Positions 1-64,000 of a stretch of 64,000 bases of DNA are shown piece after piece (the first letter of the stretch is position 1; each line of letters starts with the position of its first letter). The notes under the pieces are model-generated. The model saw nothing but the letters and a program-made list of their open reading frames with translations, made no database searches and had not been told where the DNA came from. The DNA comes from a virus. Made by a program: the position numbers and the translations under genes. Location: positions 1 through 64,000 of IMG/VR virus record IMGVR_UViG_3300044846_001842, one strand, 5' to 3'.

Positions 1-1
1 G

Positions 2-172
2 ATGACTAGTGTAGAATTACAACTTACTCTATTACAATTTAAAACTTTAGTAGAAGAAGTTCAAGAAAATGCTTTTGTTAATAAGATGGTTAATTTGGAG
101 AAGTTTGATGTAACTAAACCAATTACTTTTTTAATACCTAATGGAAGAAAATTAATTATCAATATTAAATAA
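2..172 (+). CDS. Small hypothetical protein, or 3' end of a gene starting before the window (MTSVELQ...IINIK)
   Basis: Open frame from ATG at 2 to TAA at 170-172, 6 nt before the next gene; translated by hand, not in the ORF track. Confidence 0.5.
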   Translation: MTSVELQLTLLQFKTLVEEVQENAFVNKMVNLEKFDVTKPITFLIPNGRKLIINIK

Positions 173-178
173 AAACCA

Positions 179-754
179 ATGAGTTTATTATTTACAGTAG
201 AAAGTAAAGTAGTAGTTCCAAGTACAGAAACGCTATTAATATTTCCTTTTAAAGAAATATGGGAAAAAGATAATTCAAAAGATAAAAGATATGCTATAGA
301 AGATTTTTCTTATATAGAGTTTATGGCATCTATTCAAAAAAGTAATCCTTATTCAGGTTACCCTGAACACCAAAGAGCAGAAAAGATTATACAAGATATT
401 ATTACTAGGGCAGAATGGGATCAAAAAGACCCTCTTTTACTTGCTGGTATTGAGAAATTAAAAGAGTTTCAAGCAGAAGCTTCTGTTACTTATAACTACT
501 ATATGGCTGCTAAATCTGCAGCTGAAAAAATGCAACATTTTTTTATTAATTTTAATATGTCAGATGTTAATCTTAGAACTGGAGCACCAATCTTTAAACC
601 TAAAGATATTACTTCAGCTTTAAATGATACTTCTAGAGTACTTGAAAATCTTAATACTTTAAGAGAAAAAGTTGACAATGAGGTATTTGAAGAAATTAAA
701 AAGAAAGGCCAAAAAGTAGTAAGTCCATTTGCAGATCCAAATAGTTTAAAATAA
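179..754 (+). CDS. Conserved crAss-like protein upstream of TerL (possible terminase small subunit)
   Basis: 191-aa helical protein at the start of the packaging module; function inferred from position only. Confidence 0.5.
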   Translation: MSLLFTVESKVVVPSTETLLIFPFKEIWEKDNSKDKRYAIEDFSYIEFMASIQKSNPYSGYPEHQRAEKIIQDIITRAEWDQKDPLLLAGIEKLKEFQAEASVTYNYYMAAKSAAEKMQHFFINFNMSDVNLRTGAPIFKPKDITSALNDTSRVLENLNTLREKVDNEVFEEIKKKGQKVVSPFADPNSLK

Positions 755-799
755 ATGAATACCTTTACATTTTAATACTAATCTTAAAATTAACAAGTT

Positions 800-1234
800 A
801 TGGCAAATTTAGCTAGCATCTTAGAAAATGATGATAACGGAATGGAAGAAAAAAAATCTTCTATGACAAAAGGAAAACGTGAAACTATTGCAGCTATGCT
901 TATGAAAGCTAGAACAGATGCTCACCTTACACACTTAAAACAAAAAGACAGAACTCTTGCTACTCACAATGCTATGAGCATGTTTTATGAAGGTATAGAA
1001 GAATTAGTAGATACTTATGTAGAAACTTCTATGGGTATTGATGATACTTTTTGCTTAGATGAAGTACCTGAAAGTGAACCTATTGAGAATCCTTTAAAGT
1101 ATTTCAAAGATTTGTATAACTCTTTACAAGCTGAAAGAGTAAACATTAAAGAGTCTTTTATTCAAAATCAAATTGATGAGATGGGACAATTAATTGCTCA
1201 CACTTTATACAGAATTAAATTTATTACTACATAA
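800..1234 (+). CDS. Ferritin/Dps-like four-helix-bundle protein (DUF5856-like)
   Basis: AHLTHL...HNAMSMFYEGIEELVDTYVE...IQNQIDEM...TLYRI pattern typical of phage Dps-like proteins. Confidence 0.65.
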   Translation: MANLASILENDDNGMEEKKSSMTKGKRETIAAMLMKARTDAHLTHLKQKDRTLATHNAMSMFYEGIEELVDTYVETSMGIDDTFCLDEVPESEPIENPLKYFKDLYNSLQAERVNIKESFIQNQIDEMGQLIAHTLYRIKFITT

Positions 1235-1237
1235 CAT

Positions 1238-3385: not shown

Positions 3386-3389
3386 TTAT

Positions 3390-3397
3390 TACTTTTG
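3390..3397 (+). promoter_or_regulatory. Bacteroidota sigma-A -7 element (TACTTTTG) upstream of portal
   Basis: Exact TAnnTTTG match in the 34-nt intergenic gap. Confidence 0.55.
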
Positions 3398-3419
3398 TAA
3401 CTACTTATATTTTAGAGAT

Positions 3420-7130: not shown

Positions 7131-8588
7131 ATGGCTACATTAGGAAGTAGACTTCTCGTGAAAGAGATGGAATGGAATGCAAATATGACTGAGCAGTCTC
7201 ACTTAGGTGCTGCTTTGATTGCAAAACCACACCGTATCTTAGGAGAAATGGACAAACTTTTTTCTGCTCAGAACTATTACTCTGACAACCCAATGTCTTC
7301 ATTGTTGATGGGTAACTCCAAGACTGAAGAGACTATTGGTAACACAGAATGGGAATGGGAATTGAAAGGTGCCAACACTAGACCTCTAGTTGTTGTAGAA
7401 AATGTTGAAGCTCAGGGTAACAATACTCCGGGTAAATTCAAAAAAACATTTAAAATTAAACTTGATGAGAACTGGTATTTACCAGGGGATGTAATCATGC
7501 CGGGTACTTCTAACAAGAAATACCAAGTACGAATTCAAAATCAAGGTGTAAAACATGGAGATGGAACAGTCTATACTGTTAGAATGAACTCAGATGACCC
7601 ACAAGCATTTATGCCTGTTAAGTATTTGAATCCAGGACAACAATGGGGTAAACTATTCTCTCAATATGAAGAAGCTGCAGAACAATCAGGTTCTACTGTA
7701 TTCAGCTTACCTATTGCTTTCCGTAATAGAATGTCTAAATACCGTAAAGAATACAGAATTACTGACTATGCTTCTACTGAAGTATTAGCTGTAGCTATCC
7801 CGGATTCTAAAGGTGCTTATCATAATTCATGGATGCGTTATGCTGAAGTTGAATATTGGCAACAATGGTACAGAGAAGTAGAAAGAGGATATTGGTATTC
7901 AAGATCTGCTGATACTGTATTAGGTGCTAATGGTAGACCAGTAAGAATGGGGCCTGGTATTCAGGAGCAATTAGAAGACTCTCACCAACACAGATATTCT
8001 CATTTGACTGCTAAGTTAATTGAAGAATACTTGCAAGATATATTCTACTCAAGAGTTAAACCAGGTCAAGGAAGACAGGTTAAAGGTTTTACAGGTGAGT
8101 ATGGTATGTTACAGTTCCACAGAGCTATCCAAGATTGGCAAAATAAATCAGGTTTCATTAAGAATGTTGAGGTTTATACTAACAAAGTAAAATCTGATAT
8201 TCACACTAATGCACTTGAAGCAGGTTACCAATTTGTAAAATACAACATGGCAAATGGTGCATCTCTTGAGTTAATCCACAATCCTCTTTATGATGACAGA
8301 GAGATTAACTTTGAAATTGATGAGGTTACAGGATTCCCTATTGAGTCACAAAGAATTACATTCTTAGACTTCTCAGGAGAAGCTAAAAACTCTAACATCA
8401 AAATCATGAACAAGAAAGATGGTTTTGCCTTTACTTATGTTGAAGGTATGTATGGTCCTTATGGTCCTAAAAATGGAGGTAGCTCTGCTCACTCTGGTTC
8501 ATACTATGAAATGCATGTTGAGAAGTCTTGTGGTATCCATATCCATGACATCACTAAATGTGGAGAACTAATTTTATCTAGAAATTAA
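7131..8588 (+). CDS. Major capsid protein (crAss-like)
   Basis: 485 aa; EWEWEL, GPGIQEQL, TGEYGMLQF and HNPLYDD motifs of crAss-like MCPs; synteny. Confidence 0.92.
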   Translation: MATLGSRLLVKEMEWNANMTEQSHLGAALIAKPHRILGEMDKLFSAQNYYSDNPMSSLLMGNSKTEETIGNTEWEWELKGANTRPLVVVENVEAQGNNTPGKFKKTFKIKLDENWYLPGDVIMPGTSNKKYQVRIQNQGVKHGDGTVYTVRMNSDDPQAFMPVKYLNPGQQWGKLFSQYEEAAEQSGSTVFSLPIAFRNRMSKYRKEYRITDYASTEVLAVAIPDSKGAYHNSWMRYAEVEYWQQWYREVERGYWYSRSADTVLGANGRPVRMGPGIQEQLEDSHQHRYSHLTAKLIEEYLQDIFYSRVKPGQGRQVKGFTGEYGMLQFHRAIQDWQNKSGFIKNVEVYTNKVKSDIHTNALEAGYQFVKYNMANGASLELIHNPLYDDREINFEIDEVTGFPIESQRITFLDFSGEAKNSNIKIMNKKDGFAFTYVEGMYGPYGPKNGGSSAHSGSYYEMHVEKSCGIHIHDITKCGELILSRN

Positions 8589-10968: not shown

Positions 10969-12132
10969 ATGAGTAATCGTAACAATGATGTTTTTTCAGT
11001 ACTCGTAGAGTCTGAATGTGATGGTAATTTCTTTAGTAGTGGAAATACTATTGAAGAGTTAAGTAATGGACAAATTGGTGCATTTGATGCAGCTACCAAT
11101 TTATCTGTAGACGCTTTTACTAACCCTATGCCAAATGAAATTTTCTTTGCACAGGCTTATCAAAAAAACAATGGAAGTACTGACTTCAGATTTTCTGCAG
11201 GTCAAGTAATTCAAAGAAAAGGTGTAGTAGGATTTACAGAAGTAAGTTGTACTGAAGGTTCTCCTATGGAAGTTACTGTAGGTAACTTTAGAGCAGAGTG
11301 TGATACTGAGTATGGTATCCGTGTAGAATTCCGTAATGCAAAAATCAACAGAATCCAAGGTTATAACCAATTTAGCAAAGCTTATATGGTTAAAACTCCT
11401 TGCTGTGATGATTGTGCTGAAGGATGTGGTAGCTTAGATGCTAACGTATTAAGCCAATTAATGGTAGCTGCTATCAATTCTGATGAATCAGGGTTAGTTC
11501 AAGCAGTGTTTGTTGCAAGACAAAGTATTGATTCTGGAGATCATGGTACTTCTACTGATTACTCTACAGGAGATGTAGTTTCTGCTGCTGACGTTGCAGA
11601 ATTAATTGTATTTAATTCTACTGCTGTAGCTGCTGACCAAGTATTTGCTGATTTTAAATTGATTAGCCAACCTTTGTCTATTGGTTCTTTCTGCCAAGTA
11701 AACTTACACTACTACAAATTATTAGAAACTACTTTGATTGTTTCTTTGATTGAAGGTTTTGGATGTTCAGGTGCAACTACTATTAATCAATATCCTACTT
11801 TTGCACAAGGTACAGGAATCAATATCCAACAAAAAGAGTATCATGCTTCAGGTTGGGCTGGTTCAGGACCATACAAATTGTCTCAAGTAACTGGTACTGC
11901 TTATGGTAATATTACTTACTTAGCTGATAAGAACACTTCTTATAACCAAGTTATCTTGGAGTATAACCAAAGTTCTGAATCAGGATGGCAAGAATATAGT
12001 AATCCTTTGAGTACAGTATTTGCATTCCCATGTGATAATGAGGATTGTGAAGATACTCAAGGTGGACTTGTAAATTTCTTACAAGCTTGGACTACTAACA
12101 CTCCTTTAGAAGTATTAGCTCCAATAGTCTAA
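10969..12132 (+). CDS. Auxiliary capsid/structural protein
   Basis: 387 aa, beta-rich; followed by a strong terminator; synteny. Confidence 0.55.
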   Translation: MSNRNNDVFSVLVESECDGNFFSSGNTIEELSNGQIGAFDAATNLSVDAFTNPMPNEIFFAQAYQKNNGSTDFRFSAGQVIQRKGVVGFTEVSCTEGSPMEVTVGNFRAECDTEYGIRVEFRNAKINRIQGYNQFSKAYMVKTPCCDDCAEGCGSLDANVLSQLMVAAINSDESGLVQAVFVARQSIDSGDHGTSTDYSTGDVVSAADVAELIVFNSTAVAADQVFADFKLISQPLSIGSFCQVNLHYYKLLETTLIVSLIEGFGCSGATTINQYPTFAQGTGINIQQKEYHASGWAGSGPYKLSQVTGTAYGNITYLADKNTSYNQVILEYNQSSESGWQEYSNPLSTVFAFPCDNEDCEDTQGGLVNFLQAWTTNTPLEVLAPIV

Positions 12133-45875: not shown

Positions 45876-45886
45876 AAGACAAAACT

Positions 45887-52147: not shown

Positions 52148-53241
52148 TATTTATCAAGTCTAAAACCTACACATACAGGAAATCTTGGGATGCCACCATC
52201 TGTGTACTCAAAGAATCTAACCTCTGCCATCTTACCAATGTAATTCTGCTTGTTAGCTAAGATCTCTTCTCTTTCAGCATGACTAAATTTCATACCACAG
52301 TTAAAGTTTTGGACCCAAACATTGTCTCCTGCTTGTTCCATTTTCTTAGAACAAACTACAACACCTTGTTCAGGTCTACTTTCAGAAGGAACTACATCAA
52401 CTACTTGATAAACTTCATCTAAGAAATCTTTGTATTTTAGTAATTGAGAACTTCTCTTGTTTACAGCATACCCTTCTTCAGAGTGTCTCACCATAGTGCC
52501 TTCATATCCTTGAGCAATAAATCTCTGATGAAAGTCTATGATTTCTTCCTGGGAATTTACAATCCAAGTAGGTACAATCTCAATGTTAGGATTATCTAGA
52601 TTTCTAAGTAAGTTATATAATATAGCATGTCTTTCTTCAAAAGGAGCATCCATAACTATATCATAGACATGATATTTAACCTGCTCTGTAAGATGAGGTC
52701 TGTATTTCTTGATTAGTTTCATATTCTCTTGGAAAGAGATGCCATGGGCATATAACTCTCCATCTAAAACCACATCTTCAAGATCTGCCAACACTATATG
52801 ACCAAGAGTATCTATAGCCTTTCCTGTTCTTGACATAAACCCATCATCTTCAGAACCTAAAGATCTCATACCATCTAGCTTAGGTTGTACATAACAAGGA
52901 AATGTAACTTTCTTCACTTCCTTCTTAAAATCCTTAGCTAGCATTGGTAATAAGAAATCCTTACCTCCTTTTTCTTGAGCTTCTTCTATACTATTGAAGT
53001 AACCTAATCTCATCTTTTCAGTAAGTTTAGCTTGAGCTTCAATTAAGGCTTGTGATTCAGGTGTAGTAGCATTGCTTTTACCTACATTCTTTGCTTCACA
53101 AGCACTTCTGTTAATCACTGGGTTATTGGTACCAACTACCCCTGATTCTTGCACTACAAAGTGCCCTTCATTACTTATCTCTAAGTATCTGATTTTTCCT
53201 GATGAATCTTTCTTGTAGATTCTTTTACAAAGTATTGCCAT
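52147..53241 (-). CDS. ATP-dependent DNA ligase
   Basis: QPKLDGMR (motif I), LDGELY, YHVYD, YEGTMVR, LLKYK, PRFP. Confidence 0.95.
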   Translation of the reverse strand: MAILCKRIYKKDSSGKIRYLEISNEGHFVVQESGVVGTNNPVINRSACEAKNVGKSNATTPESQALIEAQAKLTEKMRLGYFNSIEEAQEKGGKDFLLPMLAKDFKKEVKKVTFPCYVQPKLDGMRSLGSEDDGFMSRTGKAIDTLGHIVLADLEDVVLDGELYAHGISFQENMKLIKKYRPHLTEQVKYHVYDIVMDAPFEERHAILYNLLRNLDNPNIEIVPTWIVNSQEEIIDFHQRFIAQGYEGTMVRHSEEGYAVNKRSSQLLKYKDFLDEVYQVVDVVPSESRPEQGVVVCSKKMEQAGDNVWVQNFNCGMKFSHAEREEILANKQNYIGKMAEVRFFEYTDGGIPRFPVCVGFRLDK

Positions 53242-53449
53242 ATTGATGAATATAAAGAGGAAGTCTTTCCTCTGTTTTGTGAAGATCTACTATCATCCAT
53301 TGGCATTGACTTTCTTTAAAAGTTTGACCATGTTCTGAATAGTGTTCAGTTAAAAAATGCTCACCACTTTCCCAAATATTAGGGTCATAGGAAAAAATAT
53401 GGACTTCCTGTGTAGAGAAGTCCATAATAATTATCTTCTGATTAACCAT
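53225..53449 (-). CDS. Hypothetical protein
   Basis: 74-aa ORF with TAATG coupling. Confidence 0.5.
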   Translation of the reverse strand: MVNQKIIIMDFSTQEVHIFSYDPNIWESGEHFLTEHYSEHGQTFKESQCQWMIVDLHKTEERLPLYIHQYGNTL

Positions 53450-53736
53450 TACTCTAACCCAATAATATCAAGATAGTGTACAATAGTCAAAGCAGTAACT
53501 GGGTCTTTTTGGTCTTTAGGAGAAGTTACATTCATCCCATTAAAAGTTACATGATTTTGAAAGATAGGTGCTTTACCCACTTCTATTCCATGTGCTTCAG
53601 GAACCATAGGCCCAATTTCTTTGATTTCAAAAGTGGTTGTGTAACCATCTTTTTCATTCTTGCCTGGCAAGATTACAAAACTTTTCTTTTTAGTGTCTGT
53701 TTGTTGCACTAATACATATTCCCCTGTTACTTTCAT
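53449..53736 (-). CDS. GroES/Cpn10-like co-chaperonin
   Basis: 95 aa; MKVTGEYVLV..VILP..IKEIGP..IEVGKAPIF..IVHYLDIIG follows the Cpn10 pattern. Confidence 0.6.
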   Translation of the reverse strand: MKVTGEYVLVQQTDTKKKSFVILPGKNEKDGYTTTFEIKEIGPMVPEAHGIEVGKAPIFQNHVTFNGMNVTSPKDQKDPVTALTIVHYLDIIGLE

Positions 53737-54050
53737 TACTTTAATTGTTTACCTTCAACATTTCTTTTAATTCTGTCTGCAGTTCTTTTATTTAACCATA
53801 AAAGAGCTTCATCAAGCTTTGTAATAGCAATGGCATTTTCTCTACAAGGAAATTTAGATTGCAAAAAGTTTAATCTATTTAATAAAACTTCTAAAAGTTC
53901 TTCATTAGTAGTACCATCAACAATAGTTTCTAATTCAGTAGAACCTTCTTCTTTTGGCTCTTTATGAATAAATTGTAAAAGCTGACCTGGATTTTCTTTG
54001 TTTTCAAAATTGGACAATTCATATTGATGCCCTGGAACATTTACTTTCAT
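53736..54050 (-). CDS. tad1: Tad1-family cyclic-nucleotide sponge (anti-Thoeris/anti-CBASS)
   Basis: GTTNEELL..L..RL..FPCRENAIAITKLDEALLWLNKRT..R..RNVEG closely matches the Tad1 C-terminal signature. Confidence 0.85.
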   Translation of the reverse strand: MKVNVPGHQYELSNFENKENPGQLLQFIHKEPKEEGSTELETIVDGTTNEELLEVLLNRLNFLQSKFPCRENAIAITKLDEALLWLNKRTADRIKRNVEGKQLK

Positions 54051-54073
54051 AGGATTTTAAATTTATTTGTTTA

Positions 54074-54081
54074 CAAATATA
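54074..54081 (-). promoter_or_regulatory. -7 element (TATATTTG) upstream of tad1
   Basis: CAAATATA on the + strand, in the 47-nt intergenic gap. Confidence 0.6.
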
Positions 54082-54097
54082 AAGAAAAATATTTACA

Positions 54098-54949
54098 CTA
54101 AAAAATGTATCTAATTGTTTCTAAGGGAAAATACTTAGAATATAGTTCTTTAAATTGTTGAATTAAACTGTTTTTGAATTGCCATTGGTATCTAATATTA
54201 TCAGCAGCATACTGAGAGTTTTTAGACTCTTGAATTGTAGGTTGCCAAAGGTAATAGTTAACATCAGCTTTATTCCTTGAAAATTGATTTACATTATAAG
54301 TCATAAATATACATTCTGACTTAAAATCAATGCCTTGTAGTTGTTTAAATAATTCCTCATAGTCTTCTAACCAAGTAGGATAGTAAACTATAGGACTGAA
54401 ATTTATATGCACTTCCATTTTTGTTTGAAGTATAGGTATCATAGCAATTCTATCAGCTATGCTGTCAGTATTGGGTTCTAAGATACTTGATATAAATTGG
54501 GGCATAAGACTTACTCTTATTCTATGCTTACCCGGAGTCAAGTTATACTTTTGTAGCTTAAACTTTGTTGGGTATTTGGTGGCAAAAGTTGTTTTCAGTT
54601 TGTATTGTGTATTGAAGAAATCAAATACCTGTTGCCAATTATAGTGTTTACTATGTAAAGGCACATCAGTACTACATCCTATATCAACACAATAATAAGT
54701 GTCATCTACTTGATTAGGTTCTTTGGGCCAAGGCTTAGTGTCTACCCAGTCATAAATAGATCTTAGAATTTGCTCTGTGTTTTCATTGATATAAACCTTG
54801 TCATGATTATACCTACCTACATAGCAATTATGAGTAAGAATGTTATTAGCAAAGTAATTTTCATTATCTTTTACAGCAAAGTTATAAAAAATTTTGCTAT
54901 TTTTGTTGTCTAAAATCTTACTGATTCTCGTAATTTTTAATTTTCTCAT
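54098..54949 (-). CDS. C-half of split gene: Int-C (41 aa) plus C-extein of a spore-photoproduct-lyase-like radical SAM protein
   Basis: Intein blocks F/G FYNFAVKDNENYFANNILTHN|C, then SPL-like KEPNQVD..VDIGCSTD, FATKY, RIRVSLMPQ..LEP, HINFSPIV. Confidence 0.88.
   Translation of the reverse strand: MRKLKITRISKILDNKNSKIFYNFAVKDNENYFANNILTHNCYVGRYNHDKVYINENTEQILRSIYDWVDTKPWPKEPNQVDDTYYCVDIGCSTDVPLHSKHYNWQQVFDFFNTQYKLKTTFATKYPTKFKLQKYNLTPGKHRIRVSLMPQFISSILEPNTDSIADRIAMIPILQTKMEVHINFSPIVYYPTWLEDYEELFKQLQGIDFKSECIFMTYNVNQFSRNKADVNYYLWQPTIQESKNSQYAADNIRYQWQFKNSLIQQFKELYSKYFPLETIRYIF
54827..54949 (-). mobile_element. Split intein C-fragment (Int-C)
   Basis: Has its own ATG, ends His-Asn, followed by Cys+1 (54824-54826). 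Confidence 0.9.
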
Positions 54950-54950
54950 T

Positions 54951-55781
54951 ATGTTAATTTTTTACTCTCACATTGAAGCAGGAAAACATTTTAAATGTGA
55001 TCCAAGGACTGCAAAAAACAATCTACTCAATACCCAATACGTTATTGACAAATCTTCAGAGTATAACCCTAATACTTTATTTAGAACCTGTAAAAAATGT
55101 GAAAATAAATACACTTCTTCTAAAGGTAGGGCAGGATACTGTCCTAGTTGTAAAAATAAAATTTCTAAAAAAATATTAAATAGAGTTTGTAAAATCTGTA
55201 GTATTACTGCAACTAATATCAACCCTGTGTCTTTAAAATCTTGTATTTGTAAAAAATGTTCTCAGACAGGGATAGGAAGAAAGCTTCAAGCAATTTTTAT
55301 TTCAAATTTACAAACAGGTGTAAACAACTCTAATTTTGTACATGGTAATTCTACAATAAAAATATGGCAAAACAGTAGATGGGTAAAACTAAGAAAGAAT
55401 TACCCAAATAAAGTTTGTTTAAAATGTGGTAAAACAACTAATATACATTTACATCACATAATTCCTCAATGTTTATTACCTCATGAAGAAAAGTTTAACT
55501 TAGATAATATAATACCTTTATGTTCTAATCATCACAAAGAACTTCATCATCTTCAGTTAGATATTGTGCTTCTACCCAGCCTTTACCTACAATATAAAAA
55601 GGATGCTCAGCAGTTACAACAATTTTTTTACCTTCAACCTCAATTTCAATCCATGAGTTTGACTCCCTTGAAAAAATATGATGACATTTCTTTGGTTCAA
55701 CTAACTCCAAAGAATTATTATAAGATAATACAAAAGTGTCATCCTGAATTTTTTCAACAGGAATTTGCCCATTTGGTGTAG
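54951..55781 (+). CDS. HNH homing endonuclease, antisense to the split-intein gene
   Basis: NUMOD1-like start, CxxC pairs, GVNNSNFVHG, HNH core CLKCG..HLHHIIP..LDNIIPLCSNHHKELH; ATG at 54951 is likelier than TTG at 54894; TATTTTTG at 54898-54905 upstream. Confidence 0.85.
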   Translation: MLIFYSHIEAGKHFKCDPRTAKNNLLNTQYVIDKSSEYNPNTLFRTCKKCENKYTSSKGRAGYCPSCKNKISKKILNRVCKICSITATNINPVSLKSCICKKCSQTGIGRKLQAIFISNLQTGVNNSNFVHGNSTIKIWQNSRWVKLRKNYPNKVCLKCGKTTNIHLHHIIPQCLLPHEEKFNLDNIIPLCSNHHKELHHLQLDIVLLPSLYLQYKKDAQQLQQFFYLQPQFQSMSLTPLKKYDDISLVQLTPKNYYKIIQKCHPEFFQQEFAHLV

Positions 55782-55923
55782 AAATTAGTGTGCCTTTTTC
55801 TACACAATATGATTTCATACACCCTCCTAAACAGCCATAAATAAAATTAGGAGAAATAGCATCACTGCTTCTCCCATTATCTCTAGTTACTAGGGTTTTA
55901 GTCTTTTGTTTCTTGATTTCCAT
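55525..55923 (-). CDS. N-half of split gene: 39-aa N-extein of SPL-like radical SAM protein plus Int-N (93 aa)
   Basis: RDNGRSSDAISPNFIYGCLGGCMKSY, then intein block A CVEKGTLISTPNG, block B VTAEHPF, GWVEAQYL..DEVL, stop. Confidence 0.88.
   Translation of the reverse strand: MEIKKQKTKTLVTRDNGRSSDAISPNFIYGCLGGCMKSYCVEKGTLISTPNGQIPVEKIQDDTFVLSYNNSLELVEPKKCHHIFSRESNSWIEIEVEGKKIVVTAEHPFYIVGKGWVEAQYLTEDDEVLCDD
55528..55806 (-). mobile_element. Split intein N-fragment (Int-N)
   Basis: Cys1 at 55804-55806, TxxH block B, acidic end, TAG stop at 55525-55527. Confidence 0.9.
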
Positions 55924-56143
55924 TAGGTAAATAAATTGCTATAATTTGTTTATAAGCTTTATCATAATCAAAAGGTAAAAGACTAGTCCATGTTTCAAAG
56001 TCTACTGTAATATTAGGTTGAATACTATTTCCAGACTCTACTACAGTTAAAGTAAAAGAATAATCTAGATTGTTATGATTATAAATTCCTTTATAAAAAA
56101 TGTGTTTTGCAAAAGGTTGTCTTTCAAGATTTACTTGTGTCAT
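55898..56143 (-). CDS. Hypothetical protein
   Basis: 81-aa ORF within the operon. Confidence 0.5.
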   Translation of the reverse strand: MTQVNLERQPFAKHIFYKGIYNHNNLDYSFTLTVVESGNSIQPNITVDFETWTSLLPFDYDKAYKQIIAIYLPNGNQETKD

Positions 56144-56161
56144 CTTTAATTTGTTTTAAGG

Positions 56162-56347
56162 TTATTCATCTATTCCTACTAAATCACAAATATCATTGTA
56201 AGCTAACTGAACTTCATGAGCTTCTGAGCCACCTTCTTCTACCTCATCTTGACAAAGAGAGATAAAAGACCAAATTTCATCTTTGTGTTTGGGGTGTTCT
56301 TTTGCAACATTCCTTGCCCACTGCACTAATTGCTCTAAATTAGTCAT
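56162..56347 (-). CDS. Hypothetical protein
   Basis: 61-aa helical ORF within the operon. Confidence 0.5.
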   Translation of the reverse strand: MTNLEQLVQWARNVAKEHPKHKDEIWSFISLCQDEVEEGGSEAHEVQLAYNDICDLVGIDE

Positions 56348-56576
56348 CTTCTTGAGCTGAGTCTATAACATTAAACATGCCTGTAACAATTTTGTCCTTA
56401 TCTTCAAATTTGTAAAACTCTCCAAAGTCAGTGTCATCTAACCCTCTATCAATAGCTGCTCTATCTCTAGAACTAACCTCAGGGCAAGGAATTTGTTTCT
56501 GAGTCTTAGTTGTTTTATCATATTCATTCATAATACACTCTATAGTAAGGCTTTTAATTTTAATTTTTTGATTCAT
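56340..56576 (-). CDS. Hypothetical protein
   Basis: 78-aa ORF within the operon. Confidence 0.5.
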   Translation of the reverse strand: MNQKIKIKSLTIECIMNEYDKTTKTQKQIPCPEVSSRDRAAIDRGLDDTDFGEFYKFEDKDKIVTGMFNVIDSAQEDD

Positions 56577-56578
56577 TT

Positions 56579-56962
56579 TTAGTAATTATTAATTTTTTCT
56601 TTAATACTTGCCTCACATAAGATTAGATAGTTTATCAAATCTCCTATTTTTTCATCTACTACTTCTTGTTCAGGAAGCTTCCCTTGTTCTATATCATTCA
56701 GTATATCTAAGAATGATACATAGTGCTTAACTGCAAAACCCCAAAGAGCTTTCTCTTCAGTAGTGTTTTGCACTTTAGCAGCTATCCTAAAATTGTGTAG
56801 AGGGTCATTGTCTCTTCTGTACTCTTTCCCTTTTTCTACAAGAGTCCTCTTGATTATCATACATCTTGTATCTACAAGAGTGTCAAATTGAGTTTCACTT
56901 AGCTTATTATAAATTACTGATTTAGGCTTTTCTTCCATACCAAATATTTTGAAGTTTAACAA
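56579..56962 (-). CDS. DUF1599 / nucleotide-modification-associated helical protein
   Basis: EKGKEY..DPLHNF..KH..DEKIGDLINYLIL; start may be the ATG ending at 56938. Confidence 0.6.
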   Translation of the reverse strand: MLNFKIFGMEEKPKSVIYNKLSETQFDTLVDTRCMIIKRTLVEKGKEYRRDNDPLHNFRIAAKVQNTTEEKALWGFAVKHYVSFLDILNDIEQGKLPEQEVVDEKIGDLINYLILCEASIKEKINNY

Positions 56963-57233
56963 TTAACTTTTGCCACCATTTGAGAGCTATTCTCCCAAGA
57001 GCTTTGTAAGAAGGTTTTTGAAGTTCTTCTGGGGTAAATGCTACACAAAGAGCTTCTCTAACCCATTTAGGCTTAAATTGCTCACTTGCATAGTTTTCCC
57101 ATCTAAGTAAAAGATAGATGTTTTTACCTCTTTTTTCAACAGCCATAACCCTAGCAGGGTTAGAGTTGTTTTTGTAGAGAACATAGACTTTTTCTTCACT
57201 AAGGCTGTTTTTTTCTTTTTTAAAATTCCACAT
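56922..57233 (-). CDS. Hypothetical protein
   Basis: 103-aa ORF within the operon. Confidence 0.45.
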   Translation of the reverse strand: MWNFKKEKNSLSEEKVYVLYKNNSNPARVMAVEKRGKNIYLLLRWENYASEQFKPKWVREALCVAFTPEELQKPSYKALGRIALKWWQKLIVKLQNIWYGRKA

Positions 57234-57441
57234 ATTCTACATTTTGAGATTGCAACTCTGCAATTAATATAGAATCTTCTACTGAAATAGCTGGTGTCTC
57301 ATCTAGAATAGTTTCTAAATTGTAACTACATTCTTCATCATTAGGATTTACCATAGAAGGAGAAATATTTTTCTTTATCCAAGCTTTAAAAGAAGGAGTA
57401 AAGTCAGGCTGAAAAGCTGTAATAATTAATGTGTGTGCCAT
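57220..57441 (-). CDS. Hypothetical protein
   Basis: 73-aa ORF within the operon. Confidence 0.5.
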   Translation of the reverse strand: MAHTLIITAFQPDFTPSFKAWIKKNISPSMVNPNDEECSYNLETILDETPAISVEDSILIAELQSQNVEYVEF

Positions 57442-57471
57442 CTGATTAAAATTAATGAAAGCTAAGGGGGA

Positions 57472-58119
57472 TCACTCCCCCAAAGGCTTCCAAGTGTTAA
57501 AAAATTCTTCTTCTTTATTAGGAGGAAGATCATATTCCCAAGAACCTTGTAAAAAATCTTGTTCTTCTAACTGAACATTAAATACTTCTTTAACTAAAAG
57601 TTTAAACTGCTCTTTAGCAAATAGTGTTTTAAACAATACATGTCTAGCAGTAGCTTTATTTTCATCTCCAAAAAAAAGATTAATTTCATTCTTGGTGTAC
57701 ATTAAACTATACTTACCCAATAAAAATTTATCATAGACATCAGCTAATTCAGGTGGAAAGGCTAATACTATCATTTGTTTTCTACTGTTGTGCTCAAGAA
57801 TTGAGTCATAAGCATAATCTGTGACATAATATTCTTGATGTTTTACCCAATCCATAAAGTTTTGGAATAAATCAGGTCTTACAAGTTTGTCTACAAGAAT
57901 AAAAATATTCTTTTGACCTTCTAAATGAGTACCTTCTAACAAAGAATCATGTATGCCAAAGGCTAACTTAAAGACCAAGTTTAACTTGGTCTTCAAAGTA
58001 GGCCCATAGAAATTAAGAGCAGGAACTAAGTACTTAACGGTTCTGTTTACATACAATTTTCCTAACTCAATTTCTATACCTGTTTTTACAATTTTAGACA
58101 ATACCATCCCATGATACAA
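57472..58119 (-). CDS. Conserved hypothetical protein following the RecE-like nuclease
   Basis: 215 aa; YDKFLLGKYS motif. Confidence 0.5.
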   Translation of the reverse strand: MYHGMVLSKIVKTGIEIELGKLYVNRTVKYLVPALNFYGPTLKTKLNLVFKLAFGIHDSLLEGTHLEGQKNIFILVDKLVRPDLFQNFMDWVKHQEYYVTDYAYDSILEHNSRKQMIVLAFPPELADVYDKFLLGKYSLMYTKNEINLFFGDENKATARHVLFKTLFAKEQFKLLVKEVFNVQLEEQDFLQGSWEYDLPPNKEEEFFNTWKPLGE

Positions 58120-59263
58120 CTAATGGGGTTAAACCTGCTTCTTGAATTTCTCTTTCTTCATTAAAACCATTCTCACTATGGTAAATATAAAGGTCTAAGA
58201 GTTGTTCAAAGCCCTTAACTTCATGTTGAATAATAGCAGTTGCCATAGCATCTTCATCAAACAGATTAGTGTCTATTAAAGATATAGCTTTTCTGCCATA
58301 TCTCCCCATATTTAGGAGAGATTTATCTACTATAAAGTTTAAAGGTTTTCCTTGAAATGAAGTAGATTCTACTACAAATTGGAAAGGTTTAATCACATCA
58401 CTTCCTTCAGGAACTGCAAAGTGTGAATGTAATGCTAGGGTGTACCAAGCAGCTTGAATATCATATCTTCTGGCTTTGATACTACTAGGGAAATAATAAG
58501 TATTTCCATTCATAGTTTTCAAATCAATTCCTGTGATAGAAAGAATTTTTCCTTCAATATCTCTTTCTACAATAACCATGTCTAACAATCCTTTACATTG
58601 TACTCCTCTGTACTCAAAGTAAATAGGAAACTGATAATAAATTGTTATGTGTGGTAATGCTTCAAAAGAAGCCCTATCAAAGAATGCTGAGGTTCTAGGA
58701 TTATTGCATAAAGATATTACAATACTTGCAATAGTTTCTGCTTGTGTTTTGCTGATAACCCTTTTCCCAAAGGCTTTGCATAAATCCATGAAATACTCAG
58801 TTCCAGGTTCAATAATATTCTTTAACTTGGCATCTGCTCCCCATCTAGGTTGCCATTCTGCTCTATCACAGGCATCTAGAATATAAGTAGAGTGATCTTT
58901 CAAATCACCTACAAATTCTACAAAAGAAGTTACAGGTAAAGGCTCTTCCTGTCCCTGTATTACTTCTAAATGCTCTGCATAGTCCTGCAATAAATCTTGA
59001 TGAACTGCTTGCAAAATTCCTATTACAGTTTCAGAAGGAAGTTTCTCCACTCCTGAAATGTAATACTCTGCCTCAAAGGCTTCTTTTGAGTTAGTTAATA
59101 TACAATCTACTGCAGAACCTATAACAAAATGCTCAGCTGAGGAGTCTTCTACTTTATGAAAGGACCCTAAGTCCCCCAGTAATCTTTTTAATTTTGATTG
59201 ACCTAATGCACTAGACTCATAATATTCTAGTACTTCTTCCTTTGTGGCTACTATTACTGACAT
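58094..59263 (-). CDS. PD-(D/E)XK exonuclease (RecE/Exo VIII-like)
   Basis: QSKLK, IGSAVD, CKGLLDMV, IDLKT and YDIQAAWY motifs. Confidence 0.8.
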   Translation of the reverse strand: MSVIVATKEEVLEYYESSALGQSKLKRLLGDLGSFHKVEDSSAEHFVIGSAVDCILTNSKEAFEAEYYISGVEKLPSETVIGILQAVHQDLLQDYAEHLEVIQGQEEPLPVTSFVEFVGDLKDHSTYILDACDRAEWQPRWGADAKLKNIIEPGTEYFMDLCKAFGKRVISKTQAETIASIVISLCNNPRTSAFFDRASFEALPHITIYYQFPIYFEYRGVQCKGLLDMVIVERDIEGKILSITGIDLKTMNGNTYYFPSSIKARRYDIQAAWYTLALHSHFAVPEGSDVIKPFQFVVESTSFQGKPLNFIVDKSLLNMGRYGRKAISLIDTNLFDEDAMATAIIQHEVKGFEQLLDLYIYHSENGFNEEREIQEAGLTPLVVSWDGIV

Positions 59264-59766
59264 GCTACATACTGTTTAATGATTACTTGTTCTTTAAAAT
59301 GGTCAAGTGTCATGCCTACAACAGTTTTAAACTCAGAGTTCAAGTCAAACTTGAAGTCCTTCATCATAGAATACTCTAAATCAGGACTTTTACTTCTAAA
59401 TACATCAAACTGTGTTGAGGACATATACACCATTTCCATGTCCGGAGTTCTTTTAACTCCAGGCTTACCTTGCTTGTAATGAAACAATACACAAGGTCTT
59501 TTTGTAACTTCATCTTCAGGGGGAAACATAGCAGTAATGGATGTTGCCATCATAAATAACTCCTTTCCAGGATTCATATTTTTTTGGACACCAGCCTTAA
59601 TCTGCACATTGAAAGGAATGTACAACAAGTCAATCTTTGCATTGTCATGTTTTTTACTTCCAAATCTAGCAGTTTCACAGAATGTAAAGCCTAGTTCTCT
59701 AAAGAATTTGGCGTAATATCTTTCTGCAGAACTGCCCTTTCTTTTGTTTGTGGCTCCTAATCCCAT
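59254..59766 (-). CDS. Holliday-junction-resolvase-like PD-(D/E)XK nuclease
   Basis: NKRKGSSAER..RELGF..IDL..FNVQIK pattern. Confidence 0.7.
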   Translation of the reverse strand: MGLGATNKRKGSSAERYYAKFFRELGFTFCETARFGSKKHDNAKIDLLYIPFNVQIKAGVQKNMNPGKELFMMATSITAMFPPEDEVTKRPCVLFHYKQGKPGVKRTPDMEMVYMSSTQFDVFRSKSPDLEYSMMKDFKFDLNSEFKTVVGMTLDHFKEQVIIKQYVACQ

Positions 59767-59813
59767 ATAAGATTTTTAAAATTATAACTAAAAAACTTAC
59801 ATACCTTTTGGAA

Positions 59814-60743
59814 TTATCCTTCATCATCAATTAGTTCTATTGGTCTAGTGTCAGTCCTTAGTCTTGAGCCTGTTTCAAAACTTCCTCTTGTAGTATACAC
59901 TTCCACAGGTAACGTAGGAAAATCTTCTGAAGAAACAGTCAAGTTAACATATCCAGACTCTGTATGGGCAGAGTCTAAAATATTGGATTCTGTTAAAAAT
60001 AAATCAGGAATTTCTTCAATAGGATTGACAGATTCAAATAATAGAGCTTCTTCTTCAATAGGTAATTCCTCATTTTGAGTTTGTACTTCTAGTTCATTAA
60101 ATACATAAGAGTCCTCTTCTTCTGTATATAAGAATGTTGGTAGTACTTTACTCATGTACTCTTCTAACTGGCTAACAGAGTTAGCTTTAGGGATTTCAAA
60201 TACGTCTGCAAAGGTATTTCTTTCAATTTCTTGAGAGGTAATCACTCTGACCTCTATACCTTTTTCATAGCAAGACATTAATATTTCTTTTTGAAATCTT
60301 CTGTTAAGTGAAGCAAGATCTGGATTAGTAAAAAAAGATGTGGAGTAAAACAAAACAAAATCTTTATAGTCAACAGAGTTGACTTCTTCCCGATACCTTA
60401 TTTCAGAGAATTTTTTAGTATCTGGGTTTAAGTATTTTTCTCTAGGCATTGCAAAAACTATCATAGGTATCCCTGTTTCAGTAAACATGACACCTTTAAC
60501 AAAAAAGTATATTCTTTTCCCTATAGTTATTTTTGTTGGAGAAATAGCTAGTTCTAAAGCATCTTTAATATTCTTAAGCGTATTTGCTTTTTTTAAATTG
60601 CCTGATTCTAAACAAGGTTTATGATAATACCCTTCCTTTGAAGTTTTAAAGGCAAAAATAGGAATATATTTATTTGCTGTTATAGGAGTTTTAAAAAATT
60701 TATCTTCTATGTGATAGCCTACACTTTTTGGATTTGCTATCAT
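59814..60743 (-). CDS. Hypothetical protein translationally coupled to ThiF
   Basis: ATGA overlap with the ThiF stop; acidic C-terminal tail. Confidence 0.55.
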   Translation of the reverse strand: MIANPKSVGYHIEDKFFKTPITANKYIPIFAFKTSKEGYYHKPCLESGNLKKANTLKNIKDALELAISPTKITIGKRIYFFVKGVMFTETGIPMIVFAMPREKYLNPDTKKFSEIRYREEVNSVDYKDFVLFYSTSFFTNPDLASLNRRFQKEILMSCYEKGIEVRVITSQEIERNTFADVFEIPKANSVSQLEEYMSKVLPTFLYTEEEDSYVFNELEVQTQNEELPIEEEALLFESVNPIEEIPDLFLTESNILDSAHTESGYVNLTVSSEDFPTLPVEVYTTRGSFETGSRLRTDTRPIELIDDEG

Positions 60744-61336
60744 AATTCTGAAGCAGAATAATTCATAGGAACTACAAATTCATAGTAGAAAGGAACTTCT
60801 CTGATAGTTTCTCCACTATAAATGTTAGCAATATGATTAGTAAAATAGGAAGTCATAAGAGTTCCTATCATAGCTGCTGTATGAGAACTTTGCTTCATAG
60901 TACAAGGGGCTTCCTCCACTATTGAATCATGAAACAAATGGTCTTTTTCATACCTGTCAGCATTTTCCGGAGTAACACAGAATATCTGTAATTGCTCTAT
61001 CTCTAGTCTACCATCTATGAAGATTGGAGTCACCCCTGGTGGAGCTATACTCCAGGACTTCTTCCAGACATGAAACAATGCATTTCTTGCCTCCATGTTA
61101 TCAAAAGCAGAAAACATAAAGTAATGTGTCATTGTATTCATATCAATTCTCTCATTGAATGTAGATATAGGAGTATTACAAAAAGAGTTTACAACTCTTG
61201 CTACTGCTGTTACTTTAGCTTGACCTAAGTCAGTCTGCATAAATAATTGACCACCTAGATTATGGTCTTCTACAGTATCAAAGTCATAGAGGTTAACTCT
61301 AAAACCTATCTTAGTTAAGAAATAACATAACCAACT
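60740..61336 (-). CDS. ThiF/E1-like adenylyltransferase, exon 2
   Basis: SWLCYFLTKIGFRVNLYDFDTVEDHNLGGQLF is in frame with the 166-aa ORF; GQAKV, AFDNMEAR, IDGRL, EEAPCTMKQ. Confidence 0.88.
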   Translation of the reverse strand, partial: SWLCYFLTKIGFRVNLYDFDTVEDHNLGGQLFMQTDLGQAKVTAVARVVNSFCNTPISTFNERIDMNTMTHYFMFSAFDNMEARNALFHVWKKSWSIAPPGVTPIFIDGRLEIEQLQIFCVTPENADRYEKDHLFHDSIVEEAPCTMKQSSHTAAMIGTLMTSYFTNHIANIYSGETIREVPFYYEFVVPMNYSASEL

Positions 61337-61551
61337 CGACGTATCTACATATTTCTATATAGGTCGGACTATATCTTCACCCTTATAGGGTGGGGGACAC
61401 TTTTTCATTAAGGGACTAACCTTAATTACTTCCTGTTATTAAGCCACATTGCTGTGGCTCAGGTAGTCTCTGAACCTTCCATCTCTGATGGCTTGGCTGC
61501 TGATTAACAACTTAGTATAAGCTTTTTTCTCACTTATATACCTTAGTGGCT

Positions 61552-62358
61552 TTAGTCTTCCAGCAATTCATCCCCTCCACCAATAGTATTACTACTATTG
61601 GGGGCAGTTATAACTTGGCTCATTTTATTACAACTTTTACATTTTATCCTTGTTTTCCCATTTCTAAATCCATTATAAGAAGTAGACAGAGATAAACATT
61701 TAGGACATTGTATCCTTTCTTTTTGTTCATATTCTGCAATTACATTTAATTTTTCATATTTTCTTTGTAGAAAAATTGAAGCTTCCTTGTAAATATATTC
61801 TCCAAATAATTTAGAGACAGAGTAAGAACTTGTGTATAATTTATAATAATCCAAAGTTCTTAAACCTATTCCTTTAAAAGAACAAGTCAAATTTACTGGA
61901 ATTCTGTTATCATACAATTGTTTAATTATTTCTGTTATAAGAGTAAAAGATGTTCCTCCTATTTCAATTTTTAAATTAAAAAGTTTTTGAGAATACACAC
62001 TCCCATCTCCATCAAAATAACCTCTTATGAAATGGTTCATAAATTGTAAAGGAATATGATTAAGAGAAAGTAATTCCCTATTAACAGAAGATTTTAAACA
62101 AAAAACTCCCTTTTCTAAAAGATCTTTTTTAAGTTTTTTAGAAGTGCAATCTAGCTTATATGCTTTTGCATGAGATTTTCTTATTGTAAAAAAAGGAAAA
62201 ATTTGAACAAGTTTTTGTAAAAGCATTAAATCTTGTTCATGTAAAGTGATACCACAATTATTATTAGCAGAACAAACATACCCATCTGCGTAAAAAAGTC
62301 CTAACAAATATGCTTTTTCTTGTGTATCAAGTTGTTGTAATTCATTTGCATATTTCAT
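61552..62358 (-). CDS. Intron-encoded LAGLIDADG homing endonuclease with C-terminal Zn ribbon
   Basis: YLLGLFYADG and FIRGYFDGDG motifs; CPKC..CKSC. Confidence 0.9.
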   Translation of the reverse strand: MKYANELQQLDTQEKAYLLGLFYADGYVCSANNNCGITLHEQDLMLLQKLVQIFPFFTIRKSHAKAYKLDCTSKKLKKDLLEKGVFCLKSSVNRELLSLNHIPLQFMNHFIRGYFDGDGSVYSQKLFNLKIEIGGTSFTLITEIIKQLYDNRIPVNLTCSFKGIGLRTLDYYKLYTSSYSVSKLFGEYIYKEASIFLQRKYEKLNVIAEYEQKERIQCPKCLSLSTSYNGFRNGKTRIKCKSCNKMSQVITAPNSSNTIGGGDELLED

Positions 62359-62378
62359 ATTTTCTAAGTTTTAGAATA

Positions 62379-62410
62379 CAAAAATACAAACTATAAATGA
62401 GATATACAAA
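62379..62410 (-). promoter_or_regulatory. Intron-internal promoter TTTG-N20-TATTTTTG for the endonuclease
   Basis: -33 at 62407-62410, -7 at 62379-62386, 20 nt upstream of the ATG at 62358. Confidence 0.65.
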
Positions 62411-62417
62411 TATATCT

Positions 62418-62519
62418 ACCAATACCACCTGCACCACCCACCATACACACTTCATTATTTCTAGGGAACCAAGGGGCATCTTTAAATCTAGACTGTTGGG
62501 TTGTGCTATTTTGTCTCAT
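62418..62519 (-). CDS. ThiF/E1-like adenylyltransferase, exon 1 (34 aa)
   Basis: MRQNSTTQQSRFKDAPWFPRNNEVCMVGGAGGIG with the GxGxxG nucleotide-binding loop; start overlaps the JAB stop; spliced product 232 aa. Confidence 0.88.
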
Positions 62520-63753
62520 TTTCTATAAATTTGTTTATCATTGCATTAATAGTTTTAATAGTCAGCCCTATCTCTGGATAAAGTTGTTTTACATCTTCTA
62601 GCAAATCTACAATTTCATGAGTGTACTGCACAAATTCAGCAGCATTAGCATTAGGAAAATGTTGAGCAAAGTTCTTAGCATAATCATTAATTACAGATTT
62701 TGCTATTTCTTGAGGCGTTAACTCATACTCAGCTACAATGTCAAGAACATCTTCAATAGTTTCTTCTTCCTCTAAGGGACTATTAGTGTAACTAAATAAA
62801 GACTTAGCAAAGTTGTAGATAGACATAGTTTTTAAATCTTCTTCTTCTAAATCATCAATAAGATTACCAGGAACCTCCCAATCTTCAAAAAGTTTTTTTT
62901 GATTATTTTTAAGATTTTGTGTAAAATTTTTGTTCCAGCTTTCCATTTCTCTTTCTTCTTGAGATTTAAATTGCTTAGAATTGTTTTTATTGGGGGGATT
63001 ACTAGAAGTTCTTTGCCATCCTTGTCCTATTTTAAGAAGGTCTGGAGTAGTAGGAAAGTTAGATGCTACTTTTTTTACAGGTTTAGGCTCCATGATTTTT
63101 GCTACTTGAGCTGAGAACTGATCTGTCACTAAGATTGTAGTCTTAGGAGCATCAATATCACAATCATAGATAAACAACTTCTTAGTGTTAACTTCAAAGT
63201 CTTGTTTTTCAATGATATAATCTTGGCCTTGTACATTTTTAGCTGTATAAGGAACCTGTTTAATATCCTTCTTAGCTTCTCCAATAAAAGCAACTTTGGC
63301 AATAAAGTCCATATAGTTGTTTACAATAAGAGAAAGATAGAAGTTATGTGCTGGAGCATTGTCATTAAGCTCTGCCATATCTGTACCTGAGAAGAAAACT
63401 GCCATGCTGTGATGACTGTGAACATGGCCTAGTTTCCAAGTACATCTTTCTTCAAAATCTTCTTCAATGAAGTCAATAAATCTATCATCAAGATGGTATT
63501 CAGTATAAGCTGAACTACCCATATCTAAAGGAAGTATTGTCTTTAAAGTAATTTTGAATGTGCCAGGTTTTTCAATACTACCTTCTGTAGTATAAAATAG
63601 AGCACCTGACCACTCTACTTTTGGTATGTTTTTACACAGATACTGAATCTGATGTAATACTTCTATTGGCATTACCAAGGGAATTGTGAATTTTAATTCC
63701 ACTCTGGATAACTGCTTTGCTATAGATTCTTGACTCAAGCTGGCTAAGGACAT
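62506..63753 (-). CDS. JAB/MPN+ (JAMM) metallo-isopeptidase
   Basis: VEWSGALFY catalytic Glu and GHVHSHHSMAVFFSGTD (HxH-x7-S-xx-D); start codon uncertain. Confidence 0.88.
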   Translation of the reverse strand: MSLASLSQESIAKQLSRVELKFTIPLVMPIEVLHQIQYLCKNIPKVEWSGALFYTTEGSIEKPGTFKITLKTILPLDMGSSAYTEYHLDDRFIDFIEEDFEERCTWKLGHVHSHHSMAVFFSGTDMAELNDNAPAHNFYLSLIVNNYMDFIAKVAFIGEAKKDIKQVPYTAKNVQGQDYIIEKQDFEVNTKKLFIYDCDIDAPKTTILVTDQFSAQVAKIMEPKPVKKVASNFPTTPDLLKIGQGWQRTSSNPPNKNNSKQFKSQEEREMESWNKNFTQNLKNNQKKLFEDWEVPGNLIDDLEEEDLKTMSIYNFAKSLFSYTNSPLEEEETIEDVLDIVAEYELTPQEIAKSVINDYAKNFAQHFPNANAAEFVQYTHEIVDLLEDVKQLYPEIGLTIKTINAMINKFIENETK

Positions 63754-64000
63754 GTTTTAAAAATTTAGGATAAATAATAAGGTTTTCTAAAGAAACAATA
63801 GCTTCATTTCTTGTGTCTTCTTTAATTAATTTGGCAAACACTTTCTTGCCTCTAAAAATAGTGTATTCTCTAGGAAAAGTAAATTCAAAACTTCGCTTAG
63901 GTTGTTGCTCAGCTCTTCCTTGAAGAAATTCACTAAAAGTATTAGGTACTCTGGAAACTAAAATGTTTTTATATTGGTCAAAAGTAAAGTTTTGTAATAC
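63632..64000 (-). CDS. 3' part of a longer gene running off the window (possibly the E2-like member of the JAB-E1 cluster)
   Basis: Frame is open from 64000 (VLQNFTFDQYKNILV...) through the 69-aa ORF; function inferred only from context. Confidence 0.5.
   Translation of the reverse strand, partial: VLQNFTFDQYKNILVSRVPNTFSEFLQGRAEQQPKRSFEFTFPREYTIFRGKKVFAKLIKEDTRNEAIVSLENLIIYPKFLKHVLSQLESRIYSKAVIQSGIKIHNSLGNANRSITSDSVSV

Follow-up and report, generated by a model that had tools for sequence, protein, structure and literature searches.

Extreme CG depletion in a crAss-like phage related to Flavobacterium psychrophilum phage FpV4, with CCGG over-represented among the surviving sites

A crAss-like phage genome almost devoid of CG

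The stretch of DNA analysed here, called the window below, comprises the first 64,000 bases of a linear 80,106-bp virus record from IMG/VR (IMGVR_UViG_3300044846_001842, about 85% complete), and our subject is the near-absence of the dinucleotide CG throughout it. The major capsid gene (Table 1) matches Crass_capsid PF23898 over its full length (Pfam, E=2.9e-161), and its product shares 81.6% amino acid identity with those of phages FpV4 and Fpv1-3 and 25% with that of crAss001, a distantly related Bacteroides phage. On the plus strand, open reading frames (ORFs) of 1831, 4340 and 1649 amino acids precede a minus-strand replication module, a layout identical to that of FpV4. Judged by both its capsid and its gene order, the window is part of a crAss-like phage related to FpV4 and Fipvunavirus. 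Its closest relatives in culture infect Flavobacterium psychrophilum (phages FpV4, Fpv1-3, Fpv20/21 and the FPSV series) and share about 74% nucleotide identity with it over the conserved parts.

Scans of 30 ORFs against Pfam and PHROGs identified a ligase, a helicase, primase-like, PD-(D/E)XK and RusA-like proteins, homing endonucleases and a spore-photoproduct-lyase-like (SPL-like) radical SAM enzyme, with no methylase among these ORFs. A BLAST comparison of window positions 1-20000 with 401 Flavobacterium genomes did not assign a host, returning only short matches, mostly of low identity, to a repetitive stretch of protein-coding sequence. A single exact match of 29 nt (10036-10064, with positions 47052-47080 of a Flavobacterium contig, G074:C4:47052-47080) lies outside any repeat array and is therefore not evidently a clustered regularly interspaced short palindromic repeat (CRISPR) spacer.

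An exact count in the window, whose GC content is 31.9%, gave 73 CG dinucleotides against 1610 expected from base composition. This corresponds to a symmetrised odds ratio of 0.045 (odds ratios below refer to CG unless another dinucleotide is named) and to a deficit of about 38 standard deviations under a Poisson expectation. The original prediction, made from the letters of the window alone, had put the figures at about 70 and about 1500, both close to the exact ones. The whole record contains 117 CG (odds ratio 0.056), and the odds ratio stays between 0.01 and 0.14 in every 4-kb bin. Every NCGN context except CCGG is reduced to an observed-to-expected ratio (O/E) of 0.02-0.13, the non-palindromic ACGA/TCGT, ACGG/CCGT, ACGC/GCGT and GCGA/TCGC (0.02-0.1) being purged as deeply as the palindromic contexts. 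TCGA occurs once in the window and, as had been claimed, GCGC and CGCG do not occur at all. GATC and GGCC, which had been said to occur freely, are indeed present (80 and 24 in the window), but both are moderately under-represented over the record (O/E 0.39 and 0.65).

Structural genes, the capsid gene among them, are the least purged; five of the nine CG of the capsid gene lie in CGN codons, and CGT arginine codons are present. The two giant virion-protein genes are the most strongly purged (odds ratios 0.024-0.034). They contain 12 CG against 455 expected; eight of the 12 lie in CCGG, at exactly the positions first reported. Set apart in this way, CG outside CCGG is reduced in the giant genes to 4 against about 443 expected (O/E 0.009), whereas CCGG, with 8 against 11.5 expected (O/E 0.69), is close to neutral.

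Table 1. Positions in the window of the features that bear on its CG content
Feature	Coordinates	Strand	Remarks
Window-wide CG purge	1..64000		73 CG vs 1610 expected, odds ratio 0.045
Major capsid gene	7131..8588	+	Odds ratio 0.185, locally CG-richer; CCGG at 7428, 7500, 7800
Second structural-module gene keeping CG	10969..12132	+	7 CG, 3 CGN codons, odds ratio 0.19
Isolated CCGG site, ACCGGC	14826..14829
Two giant virion-protein genes (4340 and 1649 amino acids)	32853..50836	+	Purge most complete, CCGG near neutral; CCGG starts 35943, 38110, 40545, 42015, 44976, 47265, 49974, 50720
Five CCGG sites in the replication and nucleotide-metabolism module	51526..60970	-	CCGG starts 51526, 52138, 54532, 59442, 60967
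Group I intron	61345..61625	-	Rfam RF00028, 89 bits, E=2.8e-21; non-coding CG at 61337, 61340, 61365

A long history in hosts with diverse CG-containing restriction sites could in principle add up to a generalist removal of CG. F. psychrophilum strains carry about ten methylases each, several with CG-containing sites (CCGG, CGCG, GCSGC, CGCAG) (PMC11837570), and FpV4 avoids GATC (0 against 217 expected), CTGCAG, CTAG, GGCC and CCGG. Such a sum is nevertheless hard to reconcile with non-palindromic contexts as deeply purged as palindromic ones, or with the handful of non-CCGG sites left in the giant genes. By our own arithmetic, palindromic NNCGNN hexamers make up only about 6% of CG contexts, and the one word spared, CCGG, is a very common restriction site. 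We regard this explanation as highly improbable.

CCGG among the surviving sites

Seventeen of the 73 CG in the window lie in CCGG, against 1.99 expected from the use of flanking bases (binomial p=1e-11). Over the whole record, the same null model gives 24 against 3.25 expected (p=2e-14). CCGG thus remains enriched among NCGN after correction and is not spared by chance. A conservative maximal-order Markov test also yields an excess (z=+2.9). Such z-scores are of little use for NCGN words because CCGG itself supplies most of the CCG and CGG trimers, and the flanking-base null was used in their place.

Seventeen of the 18 CCG proline codons of the record are followed by G. When tetramers are grouped by the number of strands that read CCG, the O/E in the record rises from 0.037 (no strand) to 0.069 (one strand) and 0.41 (CCGG), the order expected if the target were A/G/T-C-G on either strand. 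At positions homologous to the CCGG sites, those of the minus-strand module included, relatives read CCWG or CWGG (CCA-G, CCT-G, TCA-GG or TCT-GG, the hyphen marking the codon boundary). These are synonymous third-position changes, and the CCGG sites are therefore labile states of such positions.

The flanks of CCGG are themselves biased. TCCGGA accounts for 12 of the 24 CCGG sites of the record (17 of the 24 lying in the window), a T..A flank is found at 10 of the 17 CCG-G codon junctions against 19% expected (p=4e-4), and A-CCGG and its complement CCGG-T are nearly absent from the record. A further preference or avoidance at these sites, for example through an RCCGGY-type system, may lie behind the bias.

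Codon usage and host composition

Within the phage coding sequences, CGN accounts for 13 of 837 arginine codons (1.5%), NCG for 0.1-2% of each four-codon box, and C-G at codon boundaries is reduced to an O/E of 0.065. CG is avoided at all three codon positions, the boundary being purged as strongly as the codon interior, and codon usage alone is therefore no explanation for the depletion.

For comparison, we sampled 292 kb of the type strain of F. psychrophilum, the host species of the nearest cultured relatives. In this sample the odds ratio is 1.05, CGN makes up 52% of arginine codons, NCG 8-14% of the four-codon boxes, and the C-G boundary stands at 1.21; samples of another Flavobacterium genome gave odds ratios of 0.9-1.1. 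The phage (0.045) does not mimic the dinucleotide signature of this host, nor does it share an arginine or NCG codon bias with it. An explanation by codon usage or by host composition was rejected on the strength of this CG-normal sample.

Distribution of the purge among phages

Related phages share the trait. The odds ratio of FpV4 is 0.04-0.09, and the purge extends to every one of the 80 IMG/VR relatives whose capsid identity is 78% or more (0.01-0.33), as well as to seven further full IMG/VR genomes (0.03-0.23). On the Bacteroides side, crAss001 reaches 0.017 over 19 kb, and the median of 80 crAss001-like loci is 0.041 (range 0.008-0.48). The purge is thus common to Flavobacterium-associated and Bacteroides-associated clades, with a depth of 0.008-0.48. 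Other crAss-like phages are depleted only moderately (Cellulophaga phage phi14:2, 0.49; gut phage cr56_1, 0.53).

Unrelated Flavobacterium phages, in contrast, keep CG: FpV9 (1.54), the temperate phage 6H (1.09) and 11b (0.74). FpV9 and FpV4 are phages of one and the same F. psychrophilum strain, and 6H does mimic the CG level of F. psychrophilum. From the purged relatives on the one hand and these CG-keeping phages on the other, it follows that the trait tracks the phage lineage across host genera, and not the host.

FpV9 (KT876725, 42,696 bp) has a bias of the opposite kind. Along with its raised CG, AG/CT falls to an odds ratio of 0.43 (GAG to 0.18) and TA to 0.47; CTAG and CGCG are absent, and CATG occurs only once or twice. 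Its AG/CT deficit amounts to a second dinucleotide-scale purge in phages of the same host.

CCGG in relatives and the place of methylation

Among close relatives, the share of CCGG is bimodal. In 24 of 41 longer loci there is no CCGG at all, against 284 expected from composition and 36 even at the purged rate. The other 17 give a pooled O/E of 0.78 for CCGG and 0.097 for other CG. FpV4 belongs with the former, having no CCGG; it also avoids the other sites named above. Most F. psychrophilum strains carry FpsJI, an HpaII-like system with methylase and nuclease (PMC11837570), and the 292-kb sample itself contains 99 CCGG against 289 expected. The total loss of CCGG in relatives looks like ordinary HpaII-type restriction avoidance, a second layer on top of the CG purge. 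On this comparison of genomes, tolerated CCGG would mark lineages free of HpaII-type restriction.

A further relative, IMG/VR 3300048583_000274 (G002), is instructive. In every reading frame its CCAG/CTGG is reduced 13-fold (O/E 0.11, where relatives have 1.1-2.1), and its 187 CCGG sites (O/E 2.95) serve as the substitute spelling at Pro-Gly and Ser-Gly junctions, while other CG remains at about 0.03-0.07. That CCGG should rise while other CG stays purged supports a true exemption of CCGG. The pattern suggests a host system targeting the four-base, non-palindromic CCAG/CTGG.

Two other words also set these phages apart: CTGCAG is over-represented 6-8-fold and CTGAAG about 4-fold in this phage and its lake relatives, whereas in FpV4 CTGCAG is absent and CTGAAG stands at 0.28.

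It had been proposed that CCGG escapes because a CCGG methyltransferase protects it. In its full form, this explanation holds that a methylation-sensitive, CpG-directed host defence does not see CCGG where an HpaII-type C-mC-G-G methyltransferase, of host or phage, hides it. A factor present or absent would fit the bimodal CCGG share, and the exemption looks specific to the tetramer, since CCGG stands at 0.41 where relief of its two half-sites would predict 0.13. However, a search of ten phage genomes, namely the record and nine relatives, seven of which are at least 95% complete, turned up no cytosine-5 methylase (PF00145). The closest matches of the three cytosine-5 methylases in the F. psychrophilum type strain are M.HhaI and M.HaeIII, and not the CpG methylase M.MpeI. 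In addition, a depletion to 0 against 36, below even what the purge predicts, needs restriction at CCGG and not the mere absence of a shield. A shield predicts tolerated CCGG where an HpaII-type methylase is present, and the opposite is seen in FpV4, which has no CCGG although its host is the only one with a known HpaII-like methylase (FpsJI). Protection by methylation is therefore not supported, and we consider it unlikely.

Selection, mutation or an effect on RNA

CG might also have been lost by mutation, through CpG methylation and deamination or a context-specific DNA deaminase, with CCGG restored by a T:G repair of the very-short-patch (VSP) type. Vertebrates and Mycoplasma penetrans are the classical examples of CpG loss by methylation and deamination, as cited in PMC11282364. 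FpV4 has a lower GC content (27%) and a mildly raised TG/CA (1.16), and in G002 the CCGG excess paired with a 13-fold CTGG/CCAG deficit resembles a VSP signature.

The substitutions point elsewhere. CGN arginine codons are replaced by AGA to 98.5%, which requires a C-to-A transversion and is impossible by synonymous deamination. TG/CA is only 1.05 in the window (1.05-1.07 for the phage), and the compensating excess lies in AG/CT (1.375). The host, in the same cytoplasm, keeps its odds ratio of 1.05. In addition to the lack of PF00145 in the phages, no Vsr (PF03852) was found in the record, in four relatives or in the F. psychrophilum type strain. A phage-encoded cytosine-5 methylase or Vsr can accordingly be set aside for the ten and five phage genomes searched, and a host CpG methylase by the affinities of the type-strain enzymes. 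A VSP-repair origin of CCGG, which G002 had suggested, was rejected because the CCAG/CTGG deficit of G002 extends to frames where the conversion alters the protein (9 sites against about 60), which is site avoidance and not repair drive. In this phage CTGG/CCAG is normal (O/E 1.09), unlike the expectation from VSP repair. A mutational origin is in our judgement distinctly unlikely.

Coding DNA of the record is more purged (about 0.04) than non-coding DNA (0.27), as it would be if phage transcripts were under selection, be it from a ribonuclease that cleaves at CG, from a sensor resembling ZAP or through codon and tRNA effects. Endoribonuclease toxins that recognise short motifs exist. The gap is explained, however, by structured RNAs, which hold most of the non-coding CG: the group I intron, and a tmRNA and tRNA beyond the end of the window. 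The purge of C-G at codon boundaries, as strong as inside codons, speaks against a tRNA effect. Moreover, the surviving sites have nearly the same flanks whether read on the sense strand or on its complement: in sense orientation, CCGH and DCGG survivors are about equally numerous in six genomes, which favours a reader of double-stranded DNA over an effect on RNA. Selection at the level of RNA or translation appears very improbable.

The structured RNAs are of interest in themselves. The intron carries a LAGLIDADG endonuclease ORF (61552-62358, minus strand; the whole spanning 61345-62358) and splits a gene whose 3' part, at 60740-61240, belongs to phrog_15670 and is called a 'thiamine biosynthesis protein' in the FpV4 annotation. 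The tmRNA (record positions 79157-79781, minus strand; RF00023, 54 bits, above the gathering score) adjoins a 100-nt tRNA match, and together they form a CG-rich island in a CG-purged genome; ARAGORN detected neither RNA. Another non-coding stretch, at record positions 69576-69717, has six CG in 140 nt between two replication-module genes and no Rfam match, and is a candidate for an origin, a cluster of promoters or an unfamiliar RNA.

In the capsid gene of 58 relatives, the recurrent CG columns are CGT arginine codons alternating with AGA at the same positions. We infer that the weak purge of the capsid gene reflects a balance between a small penalty per CG site and a preference for CGT in highly expressed genes.

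A putative reader of phage DNA

Taken together, the CG-normal host, the tracking of the trait with the phage lineage and the depletion both within codons and at their boundaries support the claim of a CG-directed pressure. We think it probable, with some reservation, that phage DNA is under continuing selection against CG by a sequence-reading activity blind to CCGG. The agent would be met in every infection and would impose a weak penalty for each CG site in double-stranded phage DNA, a CG going unseen when both strands read CCG, that is, in CCGG. It could be a nuclease-like or nickase-like reader with three-base specificity, A/G/T-C-G on either strand. The purge would be offset only where CG is needed otherwise, in CGT arginine codons of highly expressed structural genes and in structured RNAs. 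Lineages on hosts with an HpaII-type system would eliminate CCGG completely as well, while on hosts without one, as presumably for this phage, CCGG would drift back at synonymous Pro-Gly and Ser-Gly positions.

The original prediction ascribed the pressure to a CpG-directed host defence or methylase; the pressure itself is supported, and its origin in the host is a possibility. A host-encoded agent, a defence of the Bacteroidota, may well be responsible, at a probability just short of even. With somewhat less confidence, the agent could be encoded by the phage lineage, for example as an enzyme that degrades host DNA but spares the phage for want of sites; such a factor would explain the lineage tracking naturally. 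The remainder falls to mutation, effects on RNA or something unconsidered. More broadly, it is possible, and we put it forward tentatively, that Crassvirales including crAss001 were shaped by a new DNA reader with a two-to-three-base target, be it an innate CG sensing of the Bacteroidota or a self-sparing phage enzyme that nicks or cuts.

Several points weigh against selection by such a reader. No agent was found among the recognition sites of F. psychrophilum, its cytosine-5 methylases or the contrasted gene contents of the phages. The purge matches none of the sites listed for F. psychrophilum: CCGG, CCNGG, GCSGC, GATC, CGCG, CTGAAG, GTATNAC and CGCAG (PMC11837570). A contrast of six strongly with three weakly purged genomes (0.16-0.23) gave no nuclease candidate; only small ORFs and the SPL-like gene differ between them, and FpV4 likewise lacks the SPL-like gene. 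A host-encoded reader leaves the escape of the CG-normal chromosome and of the CG-rich FpV9 and 6H unexplained, and a phage-encoded nuclease the tolerance of about 100 residual sites. The strand-wise three-base model predicts a CCGG O/E of about 0.13 in the record, one third of that observed, and in the zero-CCGG relatives the half-sites are relieved only about 1.3-fold; owing to this misfit, the exemption may be tetramer-specific and not strand-wise. Relatives are the only guide to the host of this uncultured phage, and sequence comparison taken by itself offers no formal means of telling selection from mutation.

The SPL-like radical SAM protein is encoded at 54098-54949 on the minus strand, with an intein-splicing match at its N-terminus. 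The five strongly purged lake genomes in the comparison have this gene; FpV4 and the three weakly purged genomes lack it.

According to PMC11282364, phages resemble their hosts in CpG content. The present phage departs from a host-like level by a factor of 20 overall and of about 100 in its giant genes, which are of low expression. Whole clades of crAss-like phages share this departure, and the most abundant viruses of the human gut are crAss-like (PMC7886860). Full-text literature searches retrieved no paper describing CpG depletion in crAss-like or FpV4-like phages. The agent behind the purge may be new in kind. If it proved to be a defence directed at CG, or a phage nuclease that spares its own genome, it would represent a new principle of immunity or takeover and a new class of self/non-self discrimination, as well as a ready source of very frequent DNA-cutting or DNA-sensing activity. 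FpV4, crAss001 and their hosts are in culture, making the question directly testable. FpV4-type phages are also being developed for use against F. psychrophilum, a pathogen of fish, and their engineering may be limited by CG content.

Comparison with known systems

The closest established category is the avoidance of restriction sites by virulent phages (Rusinov et al. 2018, PMC6286503), which resembles the present case in that words are eliminated by selection in a non-temperate phage, with differences between lineages that track host systems. The relatives without CCGG, and FpV4 without GATC, CTAG, CTGCAG and GGCC, are ordinary examples. The CG purge differs in that its main word is a dinucleotide, or at most three bases, and not a 4-8-bp site, and in being conserved across phage clades on different host genera. 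Only in the separate CCGG loss of relatives does the avoided word coincide with a host recognition site. Within restriction-site avoidance, what is new about the purge is its two-to-three-base target, its persistence across clades and its absence from the host signature.

A genome-wide CpG deficit is also the mark of methylation and deamination in vertebrates and, through M.MpeI, in Mycoplasma penetrans (cited in PMC11282364). Here, however, no CpG methylase was found in the phages or in the host sample, TG/CA is not in excess, arginine CGN codons are purged as well, and the host is undepleted. Vertebrate genomes have a CpG level of about 0.2, and the phage deficit is 4-20 times deeper.

In animal viruses, CpG suppression has been linked to the evasion of CpG sensors, ZAP acting on RNA and TLR9 on DNA (as cited in PMC11282364), and the viral CG likewise falls far below the prediction from composition. 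In the present phages, by contrast, the host genome is CG-normal, the signal lies on DNA and both strands are equivalent. We know of no bacterial counterpart of vertebrate CpG sensing.

Chloroviruses encode frequent-cutting nickases, such as Nt.CviPII (site CCD) and Nt.CviQII (site RAG). No homologue of these nucleases was identified here, no search having been aimed at them. A phage-borne nicking enzyme of this kind would shred the DNA of the host, as those of chloroviruses do. By analogy, the putative reader would resemble these strand-wise readers of two to three bases, which separate virus from host DNA, and the pattern of surviving sites fits a three-base word. Chloroviruses shield their own DNA by methylation; the phages described here, with no detectable methylase, would instead be spared by doing without the sites.

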